The position numbers were made by a program, and so were the translations under genes. A model generated the notes under the pieces. That model worked only from the letters and a program-made list of their open reading frames with translations. It did no database searches and was not told the DNA's origin. Source: a virus (Duplodnaviria > Heunggongvirae > Uroviricota > Caudoviricetes). From it: a stretch of 16,884 bases of DNA. Position 1 is the stretch's first letter; each line of letters starts with the position of its first letter. The stretch lies in IMG/VR virus record IMGVR_UViG_2675903366_000007. One strand, 5' to 3'. Shown here piece by piece: positions 1 to 12,557 of this stretch.

Positions 1-461
1 CTGATCCGCGCCTCGTCGTTAGACGGGAACGTCACCAGGCTGACTTCCCAGAGGTCGATTTCTTTCAGCAGAAAGGCTTCTTTGCTCCGGTCGTATTCCC
101 AGTCTTTCAGGACGTACCCAATAGAAAGGCCGGTTAACGAACCGGCCTTCATGTGTGCATGTGCGCGTTTTGCGAGGGGATCATCATCAATGAGCAACCG
201 CCCCCTGACGTAAAGCCCGACATCGTCTTCCTTCATTTCGGTGTAAACACCGATGGGTTCATCCATGCGGTGCTGCCAGAGCAGCGCAGGTAACGCTTTT
301 CTGTCACTCCACGCCCGCAGGGAAGCAGCAAATGCCCCGGACATCACCACATCATCGTGGCTGTCCTTTACACCAAAGACGGAGCCATACCCTTCAAACT
401 CACCGGAGTCACTGACAGATTTCAGACTCAGCGGTACATCAAGACGTTGTTTCGTCTGCAT
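1..461 (-). CDS. Prohead (head maturation) protease, HK97-type; C-terminus runs off the window start
   Basis: Own translation of the minus strand from ATG 461..459: MQTKQRLDVPLSLKSVSDSGEFEGYGSVFGVKDSHDDVVMSGAF... SD-like AAGGA about 9 nt upstream. The SVFG..DSHDDVV..GAF pattern is typical of HK97-family prohead proteases, and the gene sits directly after portal. Absent from the ORF track because no stop lies inside the window. Confidence 0.75.
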   Translation of the reverse strand, partial: MQTKQRLDVPLSLKSVSDSGEFEGYGSVFGVKDSHDDVVMSGAFAASLRAWSDRKALPALLWQHRMDEPIGVYTEMKEDDVGLYVRGRLLIDDDPLAKRAHAHMKAGSLTGLSIGYVLKDWEYDRSKEAFLLKEIDLWEVSLVTFPSNDEARI

Positions 462-1680
462 TGGCGTTATCCTTCTGCTTACCGGCTTTACTGCCATCGG
501 AGGGTTTCGTGGTCATGTTCATCGGTGTGAGATAGACATCACCACCGGGACGCGGATTCATATCTTCCAGGTCGCGGCAGTCATTGGGAGAGTAAATTCC
601 CCAGTTGATCCCGGTAGCGTAGGCTTCAAAACGGGACTTCATATCCCCGCGCAGTAAGGCCCCGGCGTTAAATTTGGCGTAATAAACGCCCTGCTTACTT
701 TTTCGTACCAGTCCGGTGTTGATCCGCTGCTCAATGCGGGTCAGATACGGCACCAGTGAATAGTTGATAAATCCCAGCCCCAGCTCTTCGATATTGTTGA
801 AGGTGGCGCGATCGGTGTTCTGCACCATGTGCAATGGCACCCGGAACAGACGACAGATTTCTTCAAGCTGAAACTTGCGGGTTTCCAGGAACTGGCTGTC
901 CTCGGCGTTCAGCGCCATCGACTTCCAGTCCAGCCCCATCTCAAGGATCATCGGGCGGTGAGCATTGCCAAGCCCGGTGTGACGCTCCTCAAAATCTTTC
1001 TTCAGGCGCTCGTAAGCCTGATCTGACAGCGTCTGCTCTGTACGCAACACACCCGACGTCACCGCACCATTGCTGAACAGTCTGGCCCCGTGCTCTTCGG
1101 TCGCTGCCGCCAGCGATATTGCCTCGCGGGCATAGGCGATGGGATTCAGCCCCACCAGTCCGTCCAGCGTCAGCGTACGCACATGCCAGATATCCTCCTG
1201 GCTCAGTACATCCGTGGAGCCATCCGGAAATGTGACCTGATAGACCGGTTCCCAGCTACTGTTAAGCTTCGGTACCACACAGCCGGGATCGACGGGCAGC
1301 AGTTCAGCCACTTCGCCAAATGCTTTCACTTTGTAGGCGTAAAAGTTTCCCCTCAGGCACAGACAGGTGACCACCAGCTCCCAGAACTCCTGCGGCGTCA
1401 TATAGCCATTGGGATGCGTGGAGATCAGCTTATGCAGACGTTCGCCGGTGGCTCTCTGCTTCAGGCTACCGTTCAGGTGATACAGATTGCAGGGCAACAT
1501 CCCGACCGACTCTGCCAGCACTCTGACGCAGGAAAAAACCGCCGTCAGTCGCATGGCCCGCTGACTGCTGATCTGCTTTCCGGTATAGGTGTCATACGAC
1601 AGCCCGATGGCATCCGCCAGCTCTGCTGGCGTGGTCACCGGTGCGTCACTTTTTCGTTGAAATAATCCCGAAAAGAACAC
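439..1680 (-). CDS. Phage portal protein (HK97 family)
   Basis: 413-aa ORF with a portal-like sequence, placed between terminase and protease. GTG start at 1680 preceded by GGAGGT. Confidence 0.9.
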   Translation of the reverse strand: MFFSGLFQRKSDAPVTTPAELADAIGLSYDTYTGKQISSQRAMRLTAVFSCVRVLAESVGMLPCNLYHLNGSLKQRATGERLHKLISTHPNGYMTPQEFWELVVTCLCLRGNFYAYKVKAFGEVAELLPVDPGCVVPKLNSSWEPVYQVTFPDGSTDVLSQEDIWHVRTLTLDGLVGLNPIAYAREAISLAAATEEHGARLFSNGAVTSGVLRTEQTLSDQAYERLKKDFEERHTGLGNAHRPMILEMGLDWKSMALNAEDSQFLETRKFQLEEICRLFRVPLHMVQNTDRATFNNIEELGLGFINYSLVPYLTRIEQRINTGLVRKSKQGVYYAKFNAGALLRGDMKSRFEAYATGINWGIYSPNDCRDLEDMNPRPGGDVYLTPMNMTTKPSDGSKAGKQKDNANADETTS

Positions 1681-1873: not shown

Positions 1874-3607
1874 TTAAAGCGAGCGGATCCCGTAGGACTC
1901 AATGTGATCAGACAGCGTGTCTTCTTTCTCGTACAGCATGGCTCTGCCAACCGCCATAATCAGCGCAACTGCACCATCGATTTTGTTTTCCGCCTGCTCC
2001 TTGACGGGCTTCACCACATCATCGTTACCCGGAATGGTTTTGCCGACCACGTTGCCGATACACCAGGTCATGATGGGATTGCCGTCATGATGAAAGCGCC
2101 CCGATTCAATCGCCGCTTCCAGCTCTTTCATCGGATCGGACATGTTGGTGTAGTTCTGAATGATGGTGACGGGGTTCAGGTCTTCATCAGCAAGGTCATG
2201 TGACAGCCCGGTCGCCCCGAAGGGGTCGATAGGTGACTCACTGACCGGGCTGATTTTGTTCGCCGCTTTGGCCTCTTCGAGGATGTAGCGATAATCCACC
2301 TCCGCACCATCGGTAACGGTCAGAACGCCCATTTTCACCCATTTCTGAAAGCGTTCGGCTGTCCGGCGATCTTCATTTTTCTCGACGCTGTACACCGTGT
2401 CATACGGTACCCAGAAACGCGGGGCCACACTGTAGTAATGCGTTTTACCGTCAATCTCGCGGGTATAAAGTCGCGCCATGCTGTTCATATCCAGCTTACG
2501 GGCCAGGTCAAAGGCCAGAATGCACGGCTGCCCCTCGAACTGCTCAAGGGTCAGTGATTTATCCTCGCAGCTCTGCCAGCTCACCAGGTTGAAATACGCC
2601 GAACGCGCCGACACCCAGATATTGAGGTGTTTTGTTTTAAAGACGTTTGCCAGACGGGCGTTATTTTTCGCACGCTGCTGCTGACTTAACAAAAATTCGC
2701 GATAAACCGACACGCCAATATTCGGGTTAGCTTTTTCCAGCACCTGCGGGTCGGTCCAGTCATCGCCTTCGTCAACGGTATAGATGATCCCGAACAGTTC
2801 ATCGTTGGGTACCGACCCGTTGAGCATCTCGATAACTTCCCGTCGCTTGTCGTAGCACGGCCCCTCAATGTTGTACCCGGCAGTAGTAATGGCCCACATC
2901 AGTGGCTGACGTCGCGCCCCCATCCCGGTAAGCATCGTGGTGTAAAGCGCATCGGTGGCGTGCTCGTGATATTCATCCACCACCGCACAGTGGGGTGATG
3001 AACCATCACCGGGGTTACCGATCAGCGGTTCAAACCGCGCGCCATCCTCCGGACGATTCATGTTTGAGGCGTTAACCTCAATCCCGAACGCTTCCGTCAG
3101 CATGGGTGTGCGTTTACACATCAGTCGCGCCGGGCGAAAGACTTCCCACGCCTGTTTCTCTGTCGTGGCACCGGAATACACTTCCGCGCCAAACTCGTTA
3201 TCACAGGCAAAACAATACAGGGCAACACCGGCAGAGATTGCCGATTTGCCGTTCTTACGGGGGATTTCGGTATACACCTCCCGGAAGCGGCGCAGCCGGG
3301 ACCCTTTATTGACCCAGCCAAACGCACAGCAGACCACAAATAGCTGCCACGGCTCCAGCGTGATGGGCATCCTCTTGAATGCCCACTCACCCTTGGTGTG
3401 CGGCAACAGCTGAATAAATTTGGCGGCCCGTTCAGCCAGGTCCTTGTCGAAGCGGTAACGAAACGACTTACTTTTTTCCGCCATCAGGTCATCAAGATGG
3501 CGCTGGCAGGCCTGAATCACAAACTGGCAGGCCACAATCTTTCCGCGCACAACATCACGGGCATACTGATTGGCAGCATTTACGTTGGGGTAAGATTTCC
3601 GGCTCAT
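1874..3607 (-). CDS. Terminase large subunit
   Basis: 577-aa ORF with typical terminase-large N- and C-terminal regions. Its ATG overlaps the TerS stop (ATGA). Confidence 0.92.
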
Positions 3608-4098
3608 GACTCGATGATTTTCAGAAACGGGTTAGTGGCTTTCTTCTGCCCCGCCAGGCCAATCAGACGCTGGCGGCTGCTGGGGTCGAGTCCGAGCATT
3701 GCCCCCGTGCTGCTCATCTCGGACTCCTGTTCTTTTTTGGCGGTCAGCTCCGGATTTTTGACCCTGCCGCCCATTGCACCGGTGATGGTGTTGCCCTGTA
3801 TGGCAATATTTTTCACGGCACGTCGCCAGAACTCATAGGCCACGCACCACCGCTCAAGCACCGCGAGGTCAGTCACGCACAACAGGCCCTGACCGCAGAG
3901 TTCTTTGGTTGTCAGTTGCCACATGATCGTGGCGAGAGGGAGATTTTCTTCTGCGAACCACTCCGGTGGCTCAACACCTTTGATGGGCGTAAAAACAGGT
4001 TCATCTTTATTCAGGGCTCGCTTGCCGGGGTTTCCGGCCAGCGCCTTGCGCGCCGTTGGCTTGGGGCGACGCCCGGAACGCCCCGCCGTTCCAGCCAT
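3604..4098 (-). CDS. Terminase small subunit (P27 family)
   Basis: Translation [36 protein letters not shown]... matches the characteristic P27-family TerS N-terminus. Start taken at ATG 4098 (AGGAG 8 nt upstream) rather than the track's GTG at 4107. Confidence 0.85.
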
Positions 4099-4224
4099 AT
4101 GCGGCACTCCTGGTTAAATTTCATTTTTCGCGGGTATAAAAAAACGATGGGGCGGGCAGTCCGGAAGACGTCAGGTCACAGGGATTTGACCCGCCCCTCC
4201 CCCACATACAGTTGAGAATTATTA
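4099..4224. other. Putative cos / packaging-site region between the HNH endonuclease and TerS
   Basis: 126-bp non-coding interval in the position cos occupies in HK97-like genomes. Contains a GC-rich imperfect inverted repeat, GGGGCGGG at 4149..4156 and CCCGCCCC at 4190..4197, flanking a GACGTC palindrome. The exact nick sites cannot be determined from sequence. Confidence 0.3.
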
Positions 4225-4575
4225 TCACTTTAACCGTTCACGGGCCGTCTTCGCCTTATGGCAGGGCCAGCACAGACTCTGCAGATTACTGTCGGCATCA
4301 GTGCCACCATGCGCTTTAGGAACGATGTGGTCAACGGTTTTCGCCTCACGCACCACACCAGCATGCAGACATGACTGACATAAACCTTTGTCACGCTTCA
4401 GGACGCGCTCGCGGATACCGTCCCACTTCGAACCATAACCGCGCTGATGACGAGACTGGCCCGGCTTGTATTGCTTCCAGCCTTCGCCTTTGTGGCTTTC
4501 GCAATAGCCTGACGGGTCTGTGGTTGTAGAGTGGCAGCCGCGAACACGGCAGGCTTTTGGGATTCGTGGGGGCAT
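4225..4575 (-). CDS. HNH endonuclease (terminase-associated, HK97 gp74-like)
   Basis: 116-aa product MPPRIPKACRVRGCHSTTTDPSGYCESHKGEGW...CQSCLHAGVVREAKTVDHIVPKAHGGTDADSNLQSLCWPCHKAKT with Cys-rich and HNH motifs. Start taken at ATG 4575 (GGAG 5-6 nt upstream); the track's longer ORF begins at an upstream TTG. Confidence 0.85.
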   Translation of the reverse strand: MPPRIPKACRVRGCHSTTTDPSGYCESHKGEGWKQYKPGQSRHQRGYGSKWDGIRERVLKRDKGLCQSCLHAGVVREAKTVDHIVPKAHGGTDADSNLQSLCWPCHKAKTARERLK

Positions 4576-5086
4576 ATGTACTCCAATGAAGAAGCCACCG
4601 ACATAGCCTCCTCCATTCATAGTGAAACTATTTTCATCTACCCAGTAATGAATTCTTTGAAGAGTCGAGATCAATACAACTCACTAATGGGGAGGCTTGT
4701 CTCACACGTGAAACAAGCCTCCTGTTTGATTTACTGGACAGTATAGGACTGCAGAATGCCTTCCTCACTCGAATAACATCAATTAAGGAGGTTTAACACG
4801 GGTCAGTAGTGGTATTGCGGCAGCCGCGAACGCGGCAGACTTTCGGGATTCGTGGGGGCATATGTACTCCAATGAAGAAACCAGCGAAATAGCCGCCTTC
4901 ATTCGTAGTAAACCTTCTTCATCTACGCAGTAATTAATTCTTTGAAGAGTCGAGATCAATACAACTCACTGATAGGAGAGGTTTGTCCAACACGTTGGAC
5001 AAGCCTCCCGTTTGATTTACTTGACACTATAGAAGGACAGAATGCCTTCCTCACTCGAATAACATCAATTAAGGAGGTTCAACATG
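4512..5086. repeat. Head-to-tail tandem duplication, two ~286-bp units (about 4512..4797 and 4798..5086), roughly 85-90% identical by eye
   Basis: Direct alignment of the two units at a 286-nt offset, for example acgggtc at 4512 and 4798 and gggggcatatgtactccaatgaagaa at 4569 and 4855. Each unit carries the HNH start codon region, a long hairpin and an AAGGAGGT motif. Confidence 0.75.
4793..4861 (-). pseudogene. Truncated duplicate of the HNH endonuclease 5' end (22 codons, then stop)
   Basis: The minus strand from ATG 4861 reads MPPRIPKVCRVRGCRNTTTDPC then TAA. This parallels the first 21 codons of the intact HNH gene, which starts 286 bp away at 4575. Confidence 0.6.
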
Positions 5087-5153
5087 TTTCATTCCACAAG
5101 TCATCAGTCTGTAATTATGGTAGCATCAGTTTGTGCCACATACCTTTTCCGCT

Positions 5154-5429
5154 TCACTTTGAGTATGATTCATTTCTACCTGACCGGTTCGCCTCTATCT
5201 TTCTAATCCCCGCTTTGTCAATATTGCATTGTCCCAACGCTGACAACAGACTCACATTCAACTCCAGACTGGCACCATACGTCAGCGGATTGGGTATAAA
5301 CGGTACAGGAGTATCAGAAGTCAGGCTGGCTGGCAGTGGTGCCACCGGAGTGCTCACGTAAACTGTCCGCGTACTTCCGCAACCGATCAGCAGCGGCAAC
5401 AGGCACAGGACGTGAAGCACAGTCATCAT
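5154..5429 (-). CDS. Rz1-like o-spanin (outer-membrane lipoprotein), overlapping Rz in another frame
   Basis: MMTVLHVLCLLPLLIGCGSTRTVYVSTPVAPLPASLTSDTPVPFIPNPL...: signal peptide with lipobox LIGC followed by a Pro-rich mature region. Starts inside Rz and extends past the Rz stop. The C-terminal extent is uncertain. Confidence 0.5.
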   Translation of the reverse strand: MMTVLHVLCLLPLLIGCGSTRTVYVSTPVAPLPASLTSDTPVPFIPNPLTYGASLELNVSLLSALGQCNIDKAGIRKIEANRSGRNESYSK

Positions 5430-5706
5430 CCGCAATGACCATTTTGATATCTTCCTGGGTTCTCTGTGACTCCAGTGCGATCTGCTGTTTTGCATGCTGG
5501 TTAGCCTCCAGAACTGTATTGAAGATTTGTAGTGATTGCAGGACGTTATTGGTAATGGCTGTTGCTGATTCAGCATTTCGTACAGTCTCATCAGCACGTT
5601 TCTTTTCGCGCTGATATTTGCTGTAGTAGTGGTTGGCAGACCAGATGAAAGAACCGATGACGGTAAAGAAGAATGCAGCGATAACCAGCTTATAGCTCAA
5701 CTTCAT
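5314..5706 (-). CDS. Rz-like i-spanin
   Basis: 130-aa ORF with an N-terminal TM segment (LVIAAFFFTVIGSFIWSA) and a charged, probably coiled-coil periplasmic part. Directly downstream of the lysozyme gene and overlapping its 3' end. Confidence 0.65.
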   Translation of the reverse strand: MKLSYKLVIAAFFFTVIGSFIWSANHYYSKYQREKKRADETVRNAESATAITNNVLQSLQIFNTVLEANQHAKQQIALESQRTQEDIKMVIADDDCASRPVPVAAADRLRKYADSLREHSGGTTASQPDF

Positions 5707-6166
5707 TTACCACCCCACCAGCCTCTTTAAACCGGGAAATCAGGTCACCGATTTTATGTTCATACTGACCGTAACCTGCACCAGGTAGCGACGCCCAGAT
5801 ATTGCTGCAACGGTCGATAGCCTGACGGATATCACCGCGATCAATCATCGTTAAAGCGCCACGCTCTTTAATCTGCTGTAATGCCACGGAGTCCTGGCTT
5901 CTGGGAGAGAAGTCTTTCAGCCCTAGCTGCTTGCGGTAGGCATCCCACCAACGGGAAAGAAGCTGGTAACGTCCGGCGGCTGTTGATTTGAGTTTCGGGT
6001 TTAGCGTGACAAGTTTGCGAGGATGATCGGAGTAATCAGTAAACAGTTCACCACCGACAATAACGTCATAACCGTGGTTACGTGTCGGTTGTCGCCCGTT
6101 ATCCGTTCCTTCTGACCATGCCACCATATCGAGGAAAGCTTTACGCTGGGAATTTAGTGCCTGCAT
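5690..6166 (-). CDS. R: Endolysin, lambda R-type lytic transglycosylase
   Basis: MQALNSQRKAFLDMVAWSEGTDNGRQPTRNHGYDVIVGGELFTDYSDHPRKLVTLNPKLKSTAAGRYQLLSRWWDAYRKQLGLKDF... is near-identical in my recollection to phage lambda R. Confidence 0.9.
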   Translation of the reverse strand: MQALNSQRKAFLDMVAWSEGTDNGRQPTRNHGYDVIVGGELFTDYSDHPRKLVTLNPKLKSTAAGRYQLLSRWWDAYRKQLGLKDFSPRSQDSVALQQIKERGALTMIDRGDIRQAIDRCSNIWASLPGAGYGQYEHKIGDLISRFKEAGGVVNEVEL

Positions 6167-6169
6167 AAA

Positions 6170-6496
6170 TTACTCCTTCGTGCTACCAAATTTGTTACCG
6201 ATTACTCGCATTGCAGCCCCACGAATAGCATCGACACCGATCAGCCCAACACCGCCACCAATGGCTACAGAAAGCGATTTAGGCCATCCGACATACTCAA
6301 GAGCGGATGCAAAGGTCAGCGTCAAAGCGCCACAGAGCAAAATCTCGAGCGTTTTTCGCTTCCAGCCACCACCACCGCCAAAATAGGCAATGCGCAAGCC
6401 AGCCATAACGATCGACATAATCACTGCGCCCAGCGGTGTGTCTCCACGCCACCAGCTCTGGACCAACTCCAGCCAGGTATTTGGGTTATGAGGCAT
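6170..6496 (-). CDS. Holin, lambda S-like (three TM segments)
   Basis: 108-aa ORF with three hydrophobic segments and a charged C-terminus, directly upstream of the lysozyme gene. The Gly-rich loop plus KRK motif resembles lambda S. Confidence 0.8.
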   Translation of the reverse strand: MPHNPNTWLELVQSWWRGDTPLGAVIMSIVMAGLRIAYFGGGGGWKRKTLEILLCGALTLTFASALEYVGWPKSLSVAIGGGVGLIGVDAIRGAAMRVIGNKFGSTKE

Positions 6497-6715: not shown

Positions 6716-6744
6716 TTGCGTACGCGTTAGCGCTTTTGTATATT
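6716..6744 (+). promoter_or_regulatory. Candidate sigma70 promoter for the plus-strand cargo cassette
   Basis: TTGCGT (6716..6721), 17-bp spacer, TATATT (6739..6744), about 30 nt upstream of ATG 6778. Confidence 0.3.
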
Positions 6745-6777
6745 CAGCTTAATCCTATGTATTTATGGAAAAATAAG

Positions 6778-7809
6778 ATGAGCAAGCGTGAAATCAAAAC
6801 TAAAAAAATAATCTATAAAGAAGTCACAATGTCAGGTGTGTCAAAGACGCTCCAGTCGATGCTAATGGAGCTGCTCAAAAAACACACTAAAGCAGATTCT
6901 CGCAAGGAAATGGTCAACCCAGGAGAGGAAGACTTATTCCGATTAATTAATAAACATGAAGAGTTCCAGGGAATGCTGTTTTGCCAGCTTGTTGCCTTCG
7001 AACCAGGCCATTCTCAACGCTATATACAGCTTAAAAATGATGCTGAATCTTATGAAATAAGATCCGTAACATCAGATGAACTTTCTAAAATGACTGTTGA
7101 AGAAGCTGAAGAAGCACGCACAGAGAGGGAACAGGTTGTGCGTGAGTTTATAGATTCAATTCTTTATTTCGGTGTATTTGGTAACAGCATCGTAGTAATG
7201 CAATCCAGATCTCTTACAACAAGAGAACTTGAAACACATCTGAAATGGTTACTTGGCTCTTTAAGCAATTACTTAGGCGCAGAAAACATCTTAAAAGTTT
7301 CCGATAAGCCCAAAGAAGAGATCATTGAGGAAGTTCTAAAACGACCTGTAAAATCAGTTTCTATAGGTGCCCCTGTAACTGCCGTTAACGAATTTAGTCA
7401 AGGAAGCAAAAGCCCAGGCTGGGTTCCCGCAGGAACTGCCTCTGAACTCCTTAAAGCTATGTTAGCAGAGAAATGGGAAAGCTTCTTACGTAGTAGCAAG
7501 CTTGAAGATTGTCTTGATGACGCTAATCTTGAAGTAACGCTGAAAATCACATACAAGAGGAAAACTTCTGATTCAGGAGAAAGGATGTTAAGAAATCTTG
7601 TTGACGCTACCAGACACTACCCGGATGATGACGTCGTTGTTGAAATGGTTGGTGGGACGCGTTTAACTGGTAAAGAGATTCGTTTATGGAATACTGTTAA
7701 ACTCACAACTTACAATAGCTTAATTGATGAACATGAACTATATGGCCAAATGCATGATTGGATGGTCGCTCTGATCAACAATGGAGAAATAGAAGAGACC
7801 GATGAATAG
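6778..7809 (+). CDS. Hypothetical soluble protein (~343 aa), cargo gene A; no family recognised
   Basis: Long uninterrupted ORF in an AT-rich block on the strand opposite all flanking phage genes. Start taken at ATG 6778 (MSKREIKTKK...); in-frame alternatives are ATG 6757 and the track's TTG 6736, which lies inside the putative promoter. Charged and largely hydrophilic, with no P-loop, HTH or nuclease motif that I can recognise. Confidence 0.7.
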   Translation: MSKREIKTKKIIYKEVTMSGVSKTLQSMLMELLKKHTKADSRKEMVNPGEEDLFRLINKHEEFQGMLFCQLVAFEPGHSQRYIQLKNDAESYEIRSVTSDELSKMTVEEAEEARTEREQVVREFIDSILYFGVFGNSIVVMQSRSLTTRELETHLKWLLGSLSNYLGAENILKVSDKPKEEIIEEVLKRPVKSVSIGAPVTAVNEFSQGSKSPGWVPAGTASELLKAMLAEKWESFLRSSKLEDCLDDANLEVTLKITYKRKTSDSGERMLRNLVDATRHYPDDDVVVEMVGGTRLTGKEIRLWNTVKLTTYNSLIDEHELYGQMHDWMVALINNGEIEETDE

Positions 7810-8341
7810 AGAGGCTGCTAAGTGCATATCCTACCAACAACCAAGTAGAGCATTCCACTTGGTTGTTGTAGTATTGCTTATGTCTACAGCCTGGTTTATC
7901 GCCAATAAGTACATCATTTTAACATCCATTCCTTGGGGCGTATTAACTATCCTCATCTTACCAATTGCAAGTAGCGCAACCCTGTTTCATAAGTTATCTG
8001 AAACCCAAAAAAACGTTGCTGAGGATTTATCTCGCAATGAACAAAGAAGGTTAACAAGGCTTATTAAAGAAAAAAGCCGGGCAACATTATTCATGCTTAC
8101 GCTACAAATTTCGATAATAATTTTTGTGGCATTGATTAGCCTTGGCAATGAGTCCTCTTTTGTTCAACAGCACATTCATACTATAAGTAAATTCGTTGTT
8201 TGTGCTTTGGTTTTTTCACTATACTCATTAATCCCTGTTTTACTAGGAGTAAAGGAAGTCATTGATTTTGAAGGGTTAATAAAAACACGAAAAACATTAA
8301 ATAAGCGTAAAAAATCTGCATTATCCAAGCTTGGGAAGTAA
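7802..8341 (+). CDS. Hypothetical integral membrane protein (~179 aa, four predicted TM segments), cargo gene B
   Basis: ATG 7802 overlaps the last codons of gene A by 8 nt, suggesting translational coupling. Four hydrophobic stretches: FHLVVVVLLMSTAWFIANKYIIL, IPWGVLTILILPIASSATLF, TLFMLTLQISIIIFVALISLG, ISKFVVCALVFSLYSLIPVLLGV. Lys-rich C-terminal tail. Confidence 0.7.
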   Translation: MNREAAKCISYQQPSRAFHLVVVVLLMSTAWFIANKYIILTSIPWGVLTILILPIASSATLFHKLSETQKNVAEDLSRNEQRRLTRLIKEKSRATLFMLTLQISIIIFVALISLGNESSFVQQHIHTISKFVVCALVFSLYSLIPVLLGVKEVIDFEGLIKTRKTLNKRKKSALSKLGK

Positions 8342-11742: not shown

Positions 11743-12557
11743 CCCCTGAATCCTGCCGGGATCTGGCTGTAGTCCACGTTGTCGTAACTGGCTTTGAAGT
11801 ACGGGTCCTCGCGTCTGGCTGCAGATACCGCAGGAACTTCCCAGGATTCTTCGAAATGACGATCCGGACCAAAGAACGTGACAGCCTGTTTCACAAATTG
11901 TGTGCCGCTGTTACCCATCGCAGATACCCAGCCCGCGTAGCGTTTCACACCTTCCAGCATGGTTTCGGGGTTTACCCCCTCATTCAAACGGGCTTTCCAG
12001 GCTTTGAAGGCTGCAGATTTTGAATTGCCACCAGCACGTTTGGGATATGCCAGCCATGCCTGCTCAAACTCCGGAGAGTATTCCGGTCGGTTTGAACGAA
12101 CTCGCACGGACTCATCAACTGATGCACCAACAGCTATTGGTTCATTGACTGATTCTTTGACTGGTTCAAAAGAGTGACTGGTTCTGGGTGAATCTCCTGC
12201 ACTACCCCCTGATGCAACTCCTGCACTACATGGTGAATTTGCTGCACCAGATAGTGAATTATTTGCACTACCCCCTAGTGAATCTCCTGCACCATCCAGA
12301 TGAAGGAGATAGATATTACTTGAGTTACCTTTTTCACCTTTCCGGGTGACTTTTTTTACCAGCCCGGACTCACAAAGGGCCGCAATATGATTCATCACAG
12401 AACGTTTGCTAATCTCGCACTGGTCAGCAATATGCTGATAGCTGGGCCAGCACTCCCCCTGATCGCTGGCATTATCAGCCAGCTTGATCAGAACCAGTTT
12501 TCGCAATGGATTACCCACTCGAATTTTCATCGCTTTAACCATCAGCTCCATACTCAT
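11739..12557 (-). CDS. Putative replication initiation protein (O-like, N-terminal HTH domain)
   Basis: N-terminus LRKLVLIKLADNASDQGECWPSYQHIADQCEISKRSVMNHIAALCESGLVKK is typical of phage replication-initiator HTH domains. Followed by a Gly/Ser-rich linker and a C-terminal FEQAWLAYPKRAGGNSKSAAFKAWKARL motif. Sits in the O position downstream of cro and cII. Confidence 0.55.
   Translation of the reverse strand: MSMELMVKAMKIRVGNPLRKLVLIKLADNASDQGECWPSYQHIADQCEISKRSVMNHIAALCESGLVKKVTRKGEKGNSSNIYLLHLDGAGDSLGGSANNSLSGAANSPCSAGVASGGSAGDSPRTSHSFEPVKESVNEPIAVGASVDESVRVRSNRPEYSPEFEQAWLAYPKRAGGNSKSAAFKAWKARLNEGVNPETMLEGVKRYAGWVSAMGNSGTQFVKQAVTFFGPDRHFEESWEVPAVSAARREDPYFKASYDNVDYSQIPAGFRG

Follow-up and report, generated by a model that had tools for sequence, protein, structure and literature searches.

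The present work concerns a tandemly duplicated 286-bp unit, and the small plus-strand gene that it adjoins, in the late region of a temperate phage genome. The window, i.e., the whole stretch of 16,884 nucleotides analysed here (IMG/VR record IMGVR_UViG_2675903366_000007; Caudoviricetes), is part of an SfV/SfIV-like lambdoid prophage with packaging genes of the HK97 type; its late genes are all encoded on the minus strand, and the duplication sits between the spanin gene Rz1 and a gene for an HNH endonuclease. In a preliminary description the duplicated DNA had been taken as a leader of the HNH gene with a conserved hairpin. Our results indicate that the unit is best read as most of a plus-strand expression cassette and not as an HNH leader, the putative cassette being a moron placed between the spanin genes and the HNH gene and relying on signals for transcription that belong to foreign virulent phages. 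From 5' to 3' on the plus strand, it comprises a promoter of the T7 group (P1), a hairpin, a promoter of the SP6 group (P2), a leader with a 5' stem and a Shine-Dalgarno (SD) sequence, and an open reading frame (ORF) for a helical, hydrophobic peptide of 40 residues. The features of the locus are the following:

4225-4575, minus strand: HNH endonuclease gene, 116 amino acids (Pfam PF01844, E = 4.6e-15), with its first 64 nt inside copy A
4512-4797: tandem copy A, from Tandem Repeats Finder (TRF) and alignment
4672-4694, plus strand: P1-A, predicted T7-group (Berlinvirus-type) promoter CAATACAACTCACTAATGGGGAG, 30.5 bits, predicted +1 at G4689
4690-4723, plus strand: hairpin A (Watson-Crick part 4691-4722), stem GTCTCAC..GTGAAAC with one C.A mismatch, from folding, covariation and a strand test
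4728-4750, plus strand: P2-A, predicted weaker variant of the SP6-group promoter, GATTTACTGGACAGTATAGGACT, 26.3 bits, predicted +1 at G4746
4785-4800, plus strand: SD sequence AAGGAGG (4785-4791) in copy A, after which ACG stands where ATG would be expected, so that the start at the duplication junction is dead
4793-4861, minus strand: remnant of the HNH 5' end in copy B, 22 codons, translated as MPPRIPKVCRVRGCRNTTTDPC and a stop
4798-5083: tandem copy B, from TRF
4957-4979, plus strand: P1-B, predicted degenerate T7-group promoter CAATACAACTCACTGATAGGAGA, 21.1 bits
4975-5009, plus strand: hairpin B (core 4978-5007), stem GTCCAAC..GTTGGAC of 13 bp with one U.G pair, followed by GTTTGATTT
5014-5036, plus strand: P2-B, predicted K1-5/K1E-type promoter GATTTACTTGACACTATAGAAGG, 35.6 bits, predicted +1 at G5032
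5032-5083, plus strand: leader of 52 nt, with the stem GAAGG (5032-5036)/CCUUC (5045-5049), the SD sequence AAGGAGG (5071-5077) and a 6-nt spacer
5084-5206, plus strand: 40-codon ORF MFHSTSHQSVIMVASVCATYLFRFTLSMIHFYLTGSPLSF, with its ATG at 5084
5154-5429, minus strand: Rz1/LysC o-spanin gene (Pfam LysC, E = 5.9e-17), the last 17 codons of which are antisense to the 3' end of the 40-codon ORF

The duplication itself was confirmed, as TRF reported a single array (4512-5084; period 286, 2.0 copies, 86% matches, 0% indels, score 878) and pairwise alignment of the two copies gave 85.6% identity. The Pfam match and the translation of the remnant likewise bear out that copy A carries the real HNH start and copy B only 22 codons of it. 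The duplicated span runs from 64 nt inside the HNH gene to the A of the ATG of the ORF, and its junction, between CAAC and ACGGGTCAGT, shows a microhomology of 1 nt. This junction recurs in 8 IMG/VR loci and in 19 E. coli genomes, and in contig L055 both copies are identical to those of the window; the duplication is thus old and inherited. After duplication there remain a live HNH start in copy A, a live ORF start after copy B, and four co-directional promoters, all facing the ORF, with the stronger P1 in copy A and the stronger P2 in copy B. The internal copies of tandem loci have lost their start codon (ACG), and those of the L002 type also lack the SD sequence and part of the stem; the tandem in L002, where the copies are more diverged, went unreported by TRF though it is visible in the sequence. 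The tandem duplication is probably an incidental event.

Each copy contains the long hairpin that had been described, and the folds are well below chance: free energies on the plus strand were -21.7 (A) and -23.7 kcal/mol (B), with z = -3.5 and -4.6, respectively, and none of 200 shuffles as good, the corresponding values on the minus strand being -19.7 and -23.7 kcal/mol. Hairpin A extends from +2 of P1-A to a point 4 nt short of P2-A. From the loop outwards, the stem changes between A and B from C-G to A-T, T-A to C-G, C.A to C-G, and C-G to U.G, the two pairs that are swapped on both sides being adjacent, so that both compensatory swaps and the mismatch repaired in copy B can be read directly from the stems. 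The compensatory changes are therefore real; the idea that they arose by co-evolution of the two copies in place did not hold, because at other loci copy A has its nearest kin among tandem A copies (92%) and copy B among single-copy units (94%), and the differences between them are differences between unit lineages.

For a formal covariation analysis, 20 distinct hairpin variants were drawn from about 100 related loci. In the 13-bp stem, 95.8% of the cells were paired, with 31-49% in slid registers; three stem pairs vary on both sides, a fourth occurs as GC, GU or AU, and 0 of 500 shuffles matched the observed pairing or the covariation score. As these sequences are related, the shuffle statistics overstate their independence, and a fairer measure is the number of distinct compensatory events, which affect at least 4-5 positions; one more compensatory pair occurs in locus L151. 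The hairpin displays the highest nucleotide diversity in the unit (pi = 0.153), and pairing is nonetheless kept. Accordingly, the stem is under selection for pairing, as had been proposed from the two copies, and homologues at other loci conserve it. Searches in Rfam gave no match at the gathering score for the whole window, and none at E <= 1 in 4400-5300.

As plus-strand RNA the variants were 95.8% paired versus 85.8% as minus-strand RNA, with 33 versus 7 G.U cells, and the plus-strand fold was the more stable in 14 of the 20 variants. The U-rich GTTTGATTT lies directly 3' of the hairpin on the plus strand, and a terminator scan flagged copy B on this strand only (13 bp, 6 GC pairs, CCGTTTGATT), with copy A unflagged; the U-run is interrupted, and overlaps the ATTTA at -17 to -13 of P2. 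These results support that the hairpin and its U-rich tail belong to the plus strand, antisense to the late operon, in agreement with the preliminary description on this point. They bear as well on the proposal that the hairpin is a cis-regulatory RNA of the minus-strand HNH/terminase late transcript, or an antisense terminator controlling HNH and terminase, with a duplicated leader. The position of the hairpin, 115 nt upstream of the HNH start, its ability to fold on the minus strand too, the selection on its pairing and the terminator-like tail on the plus strand all fit such a role. Conversely, pairing is poorer on the minus strand, where no U-tract is present; the element is kept where the late genes differ, i.e., in the 77 of 94 units with a broken spanin frame and beside the HNH pseudogene fragment of L002 and L003; SfV has the same HNH gene and no such element; and two phage promoters, an SD sequence and a constrained ORF on the opposite strand are left unexplained. 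We thus consider a role as HNH leader very improbable. The plus-strand flanks of the hairpin, with a predicted T7-group promoter, a predicted SP6-group promoter, a consensus SD sequence and a conserved 40-codon ORF, had been overlooked in the preliminary description.

P1 was scored with a position weight matrix (PWM) built from 13 curated promoter features of Yersinia phage Yepe2, whose own leave-one-out range is 22.1-36.5 bits. P1-A is identical to the Yepe2 promoter phi9 from -16 to +3 (19 contiguous bases); the next-best site in the window scored 5.8 bits, all further sites 6.2 bits or less, and the best shuffle 18.4. Elsewhere P1 scored 32.7 bits in SfIV (CAATACGACTCACTAATGGGGAG), 24.2 in IAI39, 25.0 in a Klebsiella relative and 35.6 in L148, and in the divergent lineage formed by L148 and L150 it is identical to phi13 at 23 of 23 positions. 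In a wider search, 30-mers of P1 found about 10 matches per genome in Berlinvirus phages of 39 kb. By its sequence, P1 is a member of the T7-group promoter family. Because the predicted +1 is G4689 and hairpin A spans 4690-4723, the predicted P1-A transcript would open with hairpin A; the transcripts of Yepe2 phi9, phi10 and phi17 likewise open with a GGGAG...CUCCC stem-loop, followed by a TTTGA/ATTTAC tail. The likeness to the late promoter-leaders of Berlinvirus (Yepe2 phi9, phi10, phi13 and phi17) extends to an identical or nearly identical 23-bp promoter, a G at +1, the immediate stem-loop with its tail, and a strong SD sequence downstream. Unlike them, the cassette belongs to lambdoid prophages, which are temperate and have no gene for a single-subunit RNA polymerase, its stem is longer with an SP6-like inner part, and its peptide has no homologue there.

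P2 resembles the SP6 promoter, and this likeness was tested on the promoters listed from the SP6, K1-5 and K1E genomes. With a PWM of 24 K1-5/K1E sites (own leave-one-out range 24.0-39.0 bits, median 34.4), the next-best site in the window after the two P2 copies scored 1.8 bits and the best of 200 shuffles 15.2. The core of P2-A, GGACAGTATAG, is also found in the natural sites K1-5 6212 and K1E 7016, and the commonest allele of the unit, GATTTACTGGACACTATAGAAGG, reaches 37.6 bits and is identical at 23 of 23 positions to K1-5 12588 and K1E 13933. All of the 93 units that were collected via the SD region, independently of the promoter, carry P2 (93/93). Its type is that of K1-5/K1E in E. coli and that of SP6 in SfIV-like phages, with variation centred on -12 to -10: CTG, CTT and ATG are K1-5-like, and GGT, in seven SfIV-type units, is SP6-like, as is the GGG of the separately retrieved L148/L150 lineage. 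Promoters of the K1E and SP6 types constitute separate specificity clusters (PMC11880802). Within IMG/VR the 20-mer TTTACTKGACACTATAGAAG is confined to this unit (74 sites), to Vectrevirus-like contigs of lytic phages (44 kb) and to 2 odd sites, and BLAST with 30-mers gave 4-8 matches per genome in Vectrevirus and Zindervirus. By its sequence, P2 is a member of the SP6-group promoter family. As a separate observation, an exact K1-5-type promoter 20-mer lies at L086 5195-5214 (minus strand), in a 53-kb IMG/VR contig that is neither Vectrevirus nor this unit, inside a 400-codon ORF of no known function that adjoins a RecT gene; this site may represent a second non-podophage context for such a promoter.

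Both promoters, within their natural score ranges, are present in 98 of the 101 ORF-bearing units, and no further site of 20 bits or more was found in 920 kb of these prophage loci. Moreover, the promoter types co-vary, ACGACT occurring with the SP6 type in SfIV and ACAACT with the K1-5 type in E. coli. Although the motifs are short (23 nt), a chance likeness to phage promoters has a virtually negligible probability and is refuted by the scores: the sites reach 30-37 bits versus 2-6 for the next-best and 15-18 for the best shuffles, some alleles are identical to real promoters at 23 of 23 positions, and the two motifs stand in the right order and orientation with the +1 at the stem-loop. A scan of both strands in 4000-5800 and inspection by eye found no sigma-70-like promoter; copy B does contain TTGACA, which is just the -10T variant of the phage promoter.

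The hairpin has its counterpart in podophages as well. SP6 carries about nine copies of TTGTC(C/T)AAC..GTTGGACA (positions 493, 6093, 6264, 7071, 8547, 9383, 14255, 17752 and 30569 in L056), and K1-5 and K1E carry GTCTCAC..GTGAGAC (in K1-5, L137, at 559, 9570, about 6000, about 6190 and about 14565). In both groups three such hairpins per genome are directly 5' of promoters, by a few nt, as at SP6 6118, 6287 and 14286 and K1-5 6020, 6204 and 14590. The core of hairpin B is identical to the hairpin consensus of SP6/K1-5 and agrees with Proteus phage PmP19 at 27 of 27 nt, and matches of 27-28 nt to the hairpin core were found in podophages of Proteus, Pectobacterium and Klebsiella; the core of hairpin A is that of the hairpins preceding the K1-5/K1E promoters. 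The stem types of the podophages are thus the stem alleles of the window, the SP6 type in copy B and the Vectrevirus type in copy A. Because the SP6 copies carry U.G pairs on the phage coding strand, these hairpins would act as RNA in the phage too, and the conservation of the core among podophages suggests recognition by a specific factor. SP6 possesses seven terminators for its polymerase, some of them only 14 bp from a start site (PMC11347151). In sum, the cassette shares with the SP6 group (Zindervirus SP6; Vectrevirus K1-5 and K1E) a promoter identical at 23 of 23 positions, the GGT and GGG alleles at -12 to -10 in SfIV-like units, the type of hairpin core, and the location of the hairpin a few nt 5' of the promoter; it differs in residing in a prophage, in an outer stem extended to 13 bp, and in the addition of a T7-group promoter.

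The leader downstream of P2, with a strong ribosome-binding site, only loosely resembles the capsid-gene leaders of K1E, K1-5 and SP6. The ORF is intact with 40 codons in every E. coli and Shigella unit, with no stop or indel despite a diverged N-terminal half. Its C-terminal half (LFRFTLSLIHFYLTGSPLSF) is near-invariant, with a ratio of nonsynonymous to synonymous polymorphism (pN/pS) of 0.09 and 2, 2 and 7 variable sites at the first, second and third codon positions, whereas pN/pS of the variable N-terminal half is 1.46. By segment, nucleotide diversity was 0.006 for the SD-ATG, 0.022 for the C-terminal half of the ORF, 0.039 for the leader, 0.048 for P1, 0.072 for P2, 0.116 for the spacer and 0.14-0.34 for the flanks. 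The last 52 nt of the ORF overlap Rz1 on the opposite strand, the wobble position of Rz1 being position 2 of the plus-strand frame, and the codon pattern of the C-terminal half is the same whether Rz1 is intact (17 units) or not (77). Since the variation falls on the wobble of the plus-strand frame (second positions of Rz1), with or without an intact Rz1, the frame under constraint is that of the ORF, and this codon-phase analysis ruled out its conservation merely as an antisense shadow of Rz1. AlphaFold predicts a single helix for residues 2-34, with a mean predicted local distance difference test score (pLDDT) of 85; in hydropathy the E. coli type is a borderline case of a membrane helix, and the SfIV type scores lower. 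The sources label the peptide just as hypothetical or uncharacterised protein. An origin of the leader or ORF from a podophage gene was considered and discarded, as only the promoters and the hairpin match, and tblastn and tblastx gave nothing significant; the ORF has no homologue in SP6, K1-5, K1E or Yepe2. We regard it as highly probable that podophage promoters of functional type drive a real small gene.

The unit was found in 960 of 5426 complete E. coli genomes (18%), nearly always as a single copy; exact-pattern scans of the GTDB representative genomes gave no match. Comparison with related phages delimits the insertion: SfV, a close relative without a cassette, has only 26 bp from the HNH start to the Rz1 stop, SfIV has one copy, and the window two. 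Because homology between SfV and the window resumes at about 5207, directly after the ORF stop, the insertion extends from the HNH start to the ORF stop, and the cassette is a discrete insertion between conserved genes. The insertion gave Rz1/LysC a new C-terminal tail, its last ~17 codons being replaced (window 5154-5206 versus SfV, L152, 436-488); in the window and SfIV this o-spanin tail is the antisense of the small ORF and varies at second codon positions of Rz1, and the spanin evidently tolerates a different C-end.

The surroundings of the unit are variable. In L002 and L003, both from E. coli, it adjoins a lambda-type Nu1/A terminase and the HNH gene is a 150-bp pseudogene fragment; since 77 of 94 units have a broken spanin frame, the late-gene surroundings differ there too, and the cassette is nonetheless kept. 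Downstream of it lie the spanins in the window, iss/bor in L002 and unrelated DNA in L003. In L002 (E. coli WP5-W18) iss, encoding a bor-family serum-resistance lipoprotein, is found at 3148-3441, about 300 bp downstream of the ORF and on the same strand, and read-through from the phage promoters would take it in. A temperate phage of Klebsiella carries P1, the hairpin and a 38-codon ORF with the same C-end; this relative (L145 1150-1180) has an extra hairpin, GGGCTTGTCTCTTATGAGAGACAAAA, 5' of its P1-like site. The divergent lineage of L148 contains an additional gene of 65 codons between HNH and the cassette (1005-1202). Furthermore, because two truncated cassettes were found (L092, ~77-96, and one IMG/VR unit), one ending after +4 of P2 and the other in the hairpin loop (CAGGAAACCCGGGGCGGTTCACGTTGGACAAG...), recombination breakpoints do fall inside the cassette.

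These data allow weighing of the explanation that the unit is a neutral relic, i.e., podophage DNA that entered a lambdoid ancestor through illegitimate recombination, spread as a hitch-hiker of the late-gene modules and has no present function. Such a relic would explain that the units are close kin and possibly of one origin, that lambda-type prophages repeat the same boundary of the HNH fragment, that there is drift at some core positions of the promoters, and that the internal tandem copies are visibly decaying. It does not account for the joining of two unrelated promoter families before one ORF that has no homologue in SP6, K1-5, K1E or Yepe2, nor for the purifying selection on the C-terminal half of that ORF, the minimum of diversity exactly at the promoters, leader and SD-ATG, and the maintenance of the stem by compensatory evolution. 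The promoter alleles, in addition, shift among natural variants (P1 phi9- or phi13-like; P2 with CTG, GGT or GGG), and 18% of the complete E. coli genomes carry the unit. A relic is thus unlikely.

The remaining genes of the late region, and the nearest genes on the plus strand, are the following:

439-1680, minus strand: portal
1874-3607, minus strand: large terminase subunit (TerL)
3604-4107, minus strand: small terminase subunit (TerS; Terminase_4)
5314-5706, minus strand: Rz (DUF2570)
5690-6166, minus strand: endolysin
6170-6496, minus strand: holin
6736-7809 and 7802-8341, plus strand: two overlapping genes, 357 and 179 amino acids, between the lysis cassette and the early region

The last two have the same direction as the cassette, about 1.5 kb downstream of it, and match only PHROGs of unknown function (phrog_3482 and phrog_16807), although for the 6736-7809 product PADLOC also gave a faint match, to PtuA, an AAA ATPase (E = 0.016). 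An accessory or defensive role is possible for both genes. Farther away, TRF detected imperfect tandem repeats at 12188-12292 (24 bp, 4.6 copies), together with repeats of 21 bp and 12 bp (12141-12168, 12221-12271); they look like the iterons of a lambdoid replication origin within an O-like gene.

In a further explanation, the polymerase of an invading podophage does transcribe the cassette, with another product or beneficiary: an antisense RNA over the lysis genes, read-through into 6736-8341, escape of the prophage, or help to the podophage. T7-type polymerases ignore most host terminators, the terminator scan revealed none after the ORF, two plus-strand genes of unknown function lie 1.5 kb downstream, and pN/pS is about 1.5 in the N-terminal half of the peptide, as this explanation would have it. 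However, the downstream DNA varies by context (window, L002 and L003), the boundary defined by SfV is exactly the ORF stop, and the most constrained parts are the C-terminal half of the ORF and the SD-ATG; such an alternative output is consequently improbable.

The interpretation that we favour instead is a chain of conditional steps. In the lysogen the cassette would be silent, having no sigma-70 promoter and being antisense to the late operon, and the hairpin and U-tract would insulate it from read-through. Upon infection by a T7-like or SP6-like podophage, the RNA polymerase of the invader would read P1 and/or P2 and yield a stable, well-translated mRNA for the peptide, which would then act against the infecting phage through abortive infection or exclusion, the membrane being the most plausible site. 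We infer the silence in the lysogen, the transcription in vivo by the invader's polymerase, and any anti-phage effect from the arrangement described above, and consider this full chain somewhat probable; taken by itself, anti-phage defence as the purpose of the cassette has a slightly less than even prospect. More tentatively, and with rather more doubt than confidence, the cassette could be a natural "polymerase trap", in which lambdoid prophages of E. coli and Shigella hold a defence gene that lacks a host promoter and is wired to the promoters of two families of virulent podophages (T7-like and SP6-like), its small helical peptide aborting or limiting the infection. The promoter alleles, the hairpin alleles and the fast-evolving N-terminal half would in that case be footprints of an arms race, a reading to which we give the same tentative standing.

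Several points weigh against this interpretation. The sampled units are closely related, so that counts such as 98 of the 101 and the shuffle statistics do not represent independent events. P1-B, at 21.1 bits, is just under the lowest natural Yepe2 site (22.1), and P2 has core changes at normally invariant positions, namely -3T in the 7 SfIV-type units, -7C in L148 and -2C in L147. The Klebsiella relative lacks P2, and its P1 fits a Klebsiella-specific podophage no better than Berlinvirus. Neither Pfam nor PHROGs nor PADLOC gave a family match for the peptide, which makes any proposal on its action conjectural, and the SfIV-type peptide is only weakly hydrophobic. Finally, the hairpin and U-tract might terminate P1 transcripts before the ORF, and the beneficiary of any effect could be the prophage, or even the podophage, and not the host.

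Among known systems, one parallel in structure and position is that of the lambdoid morons, a concept from Hendrix and colleagues, of which bor of lambda, between Rz and cos, is an example. Like them, the cassette is a discrete additional transcription unit, with its own promoter and hairpin, set among conserved late genes, which SfIV and the window possess and SfV does not, and it occupies the slot and the opposite-strand orientation of bor/iss. The morons known so far are transcribed in the lysogen from sigma-70 promoters of the host type; the cassette, unlike them, has no sigma-70 promoter and bears instead promoters for foreign phage polymerases. Regarding its proposed effect, comparators include the type I toxins Hok and TisB, the exclusion of T7 by PifA of the F plasmid, and engineered suicide cassettes of Lactococcus, in which a lethal gene is wired to a promoter induced by the infecting phage. 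With abortive infection and small-toxin systems the cassette would share a small, hydrophobic, helical peptide made only on infection; it differs from them in the absence of an antitoxin RNA, of sequence kinship to toxins and of a PADLOC match, as well as in its proposed trigger, which is direct transcription by the polymerase of the invader. A type I toxin-antitoxin system or a known defence protein was accordingly rejected, given the lack of Pfam, PHROG and PADLOC matches. Satellites are known to use transcription factors of their helpers, as P4 does with Ogr of P2 and as do the phage-inducible chromosomal islands (PICIs), and the cassette resembles them in that part of the transcription apparatus of another phage would turn on resident genes. 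In those satellites the helper contributes an activator that works on the host polymerase, and as a result the satellite propagates, whereas here the foreign polymerase itself would serve, on a single peptide gene. The prophage small RNA svsR, which limits lytic phages, was also considered and set aside, being encoded at another locus, the 3' end of cI (PMC12803456). Full-text literature searches found no description of podophage promoters in prophages, nor of a natural system triggered by direct transcription from the polymerase of an invader.

If the proposed chain is correct, the cassette would be an immune device of about 350 bp that senses the invader's own RNA polymerase, the activity which the invader can least do without and which is most specific to it, with two polymerase families converging on one output gene, and being transcribed by the invader would constitute a new principle of phage detection, unlike known defences that sense phage proteins, nucleic-acid features or host shut-off. 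Escape would be hard, as the specificity of the polymerase and all of the phage's own promoters would have to change. As a common unannotated element (960/5426), it could affect the host range of the T7-like and K1-5/SP6-like phages that are in wide use for phage therapy and typing, and the proposal is testable with standard reagents, including SP6 and T7-type polymerases, phages K1-5 and K1E, and the Berlinvirus members of the BASEL collection. For genome annotation, it illustrates that "intergenic leaders" in late operons can conceal genes on the opposite strand. Even without a role in defence, the cassette would document that unrelated phage lineages have, unexpectedly, exchanged or mimicked each other's regulatory signals.

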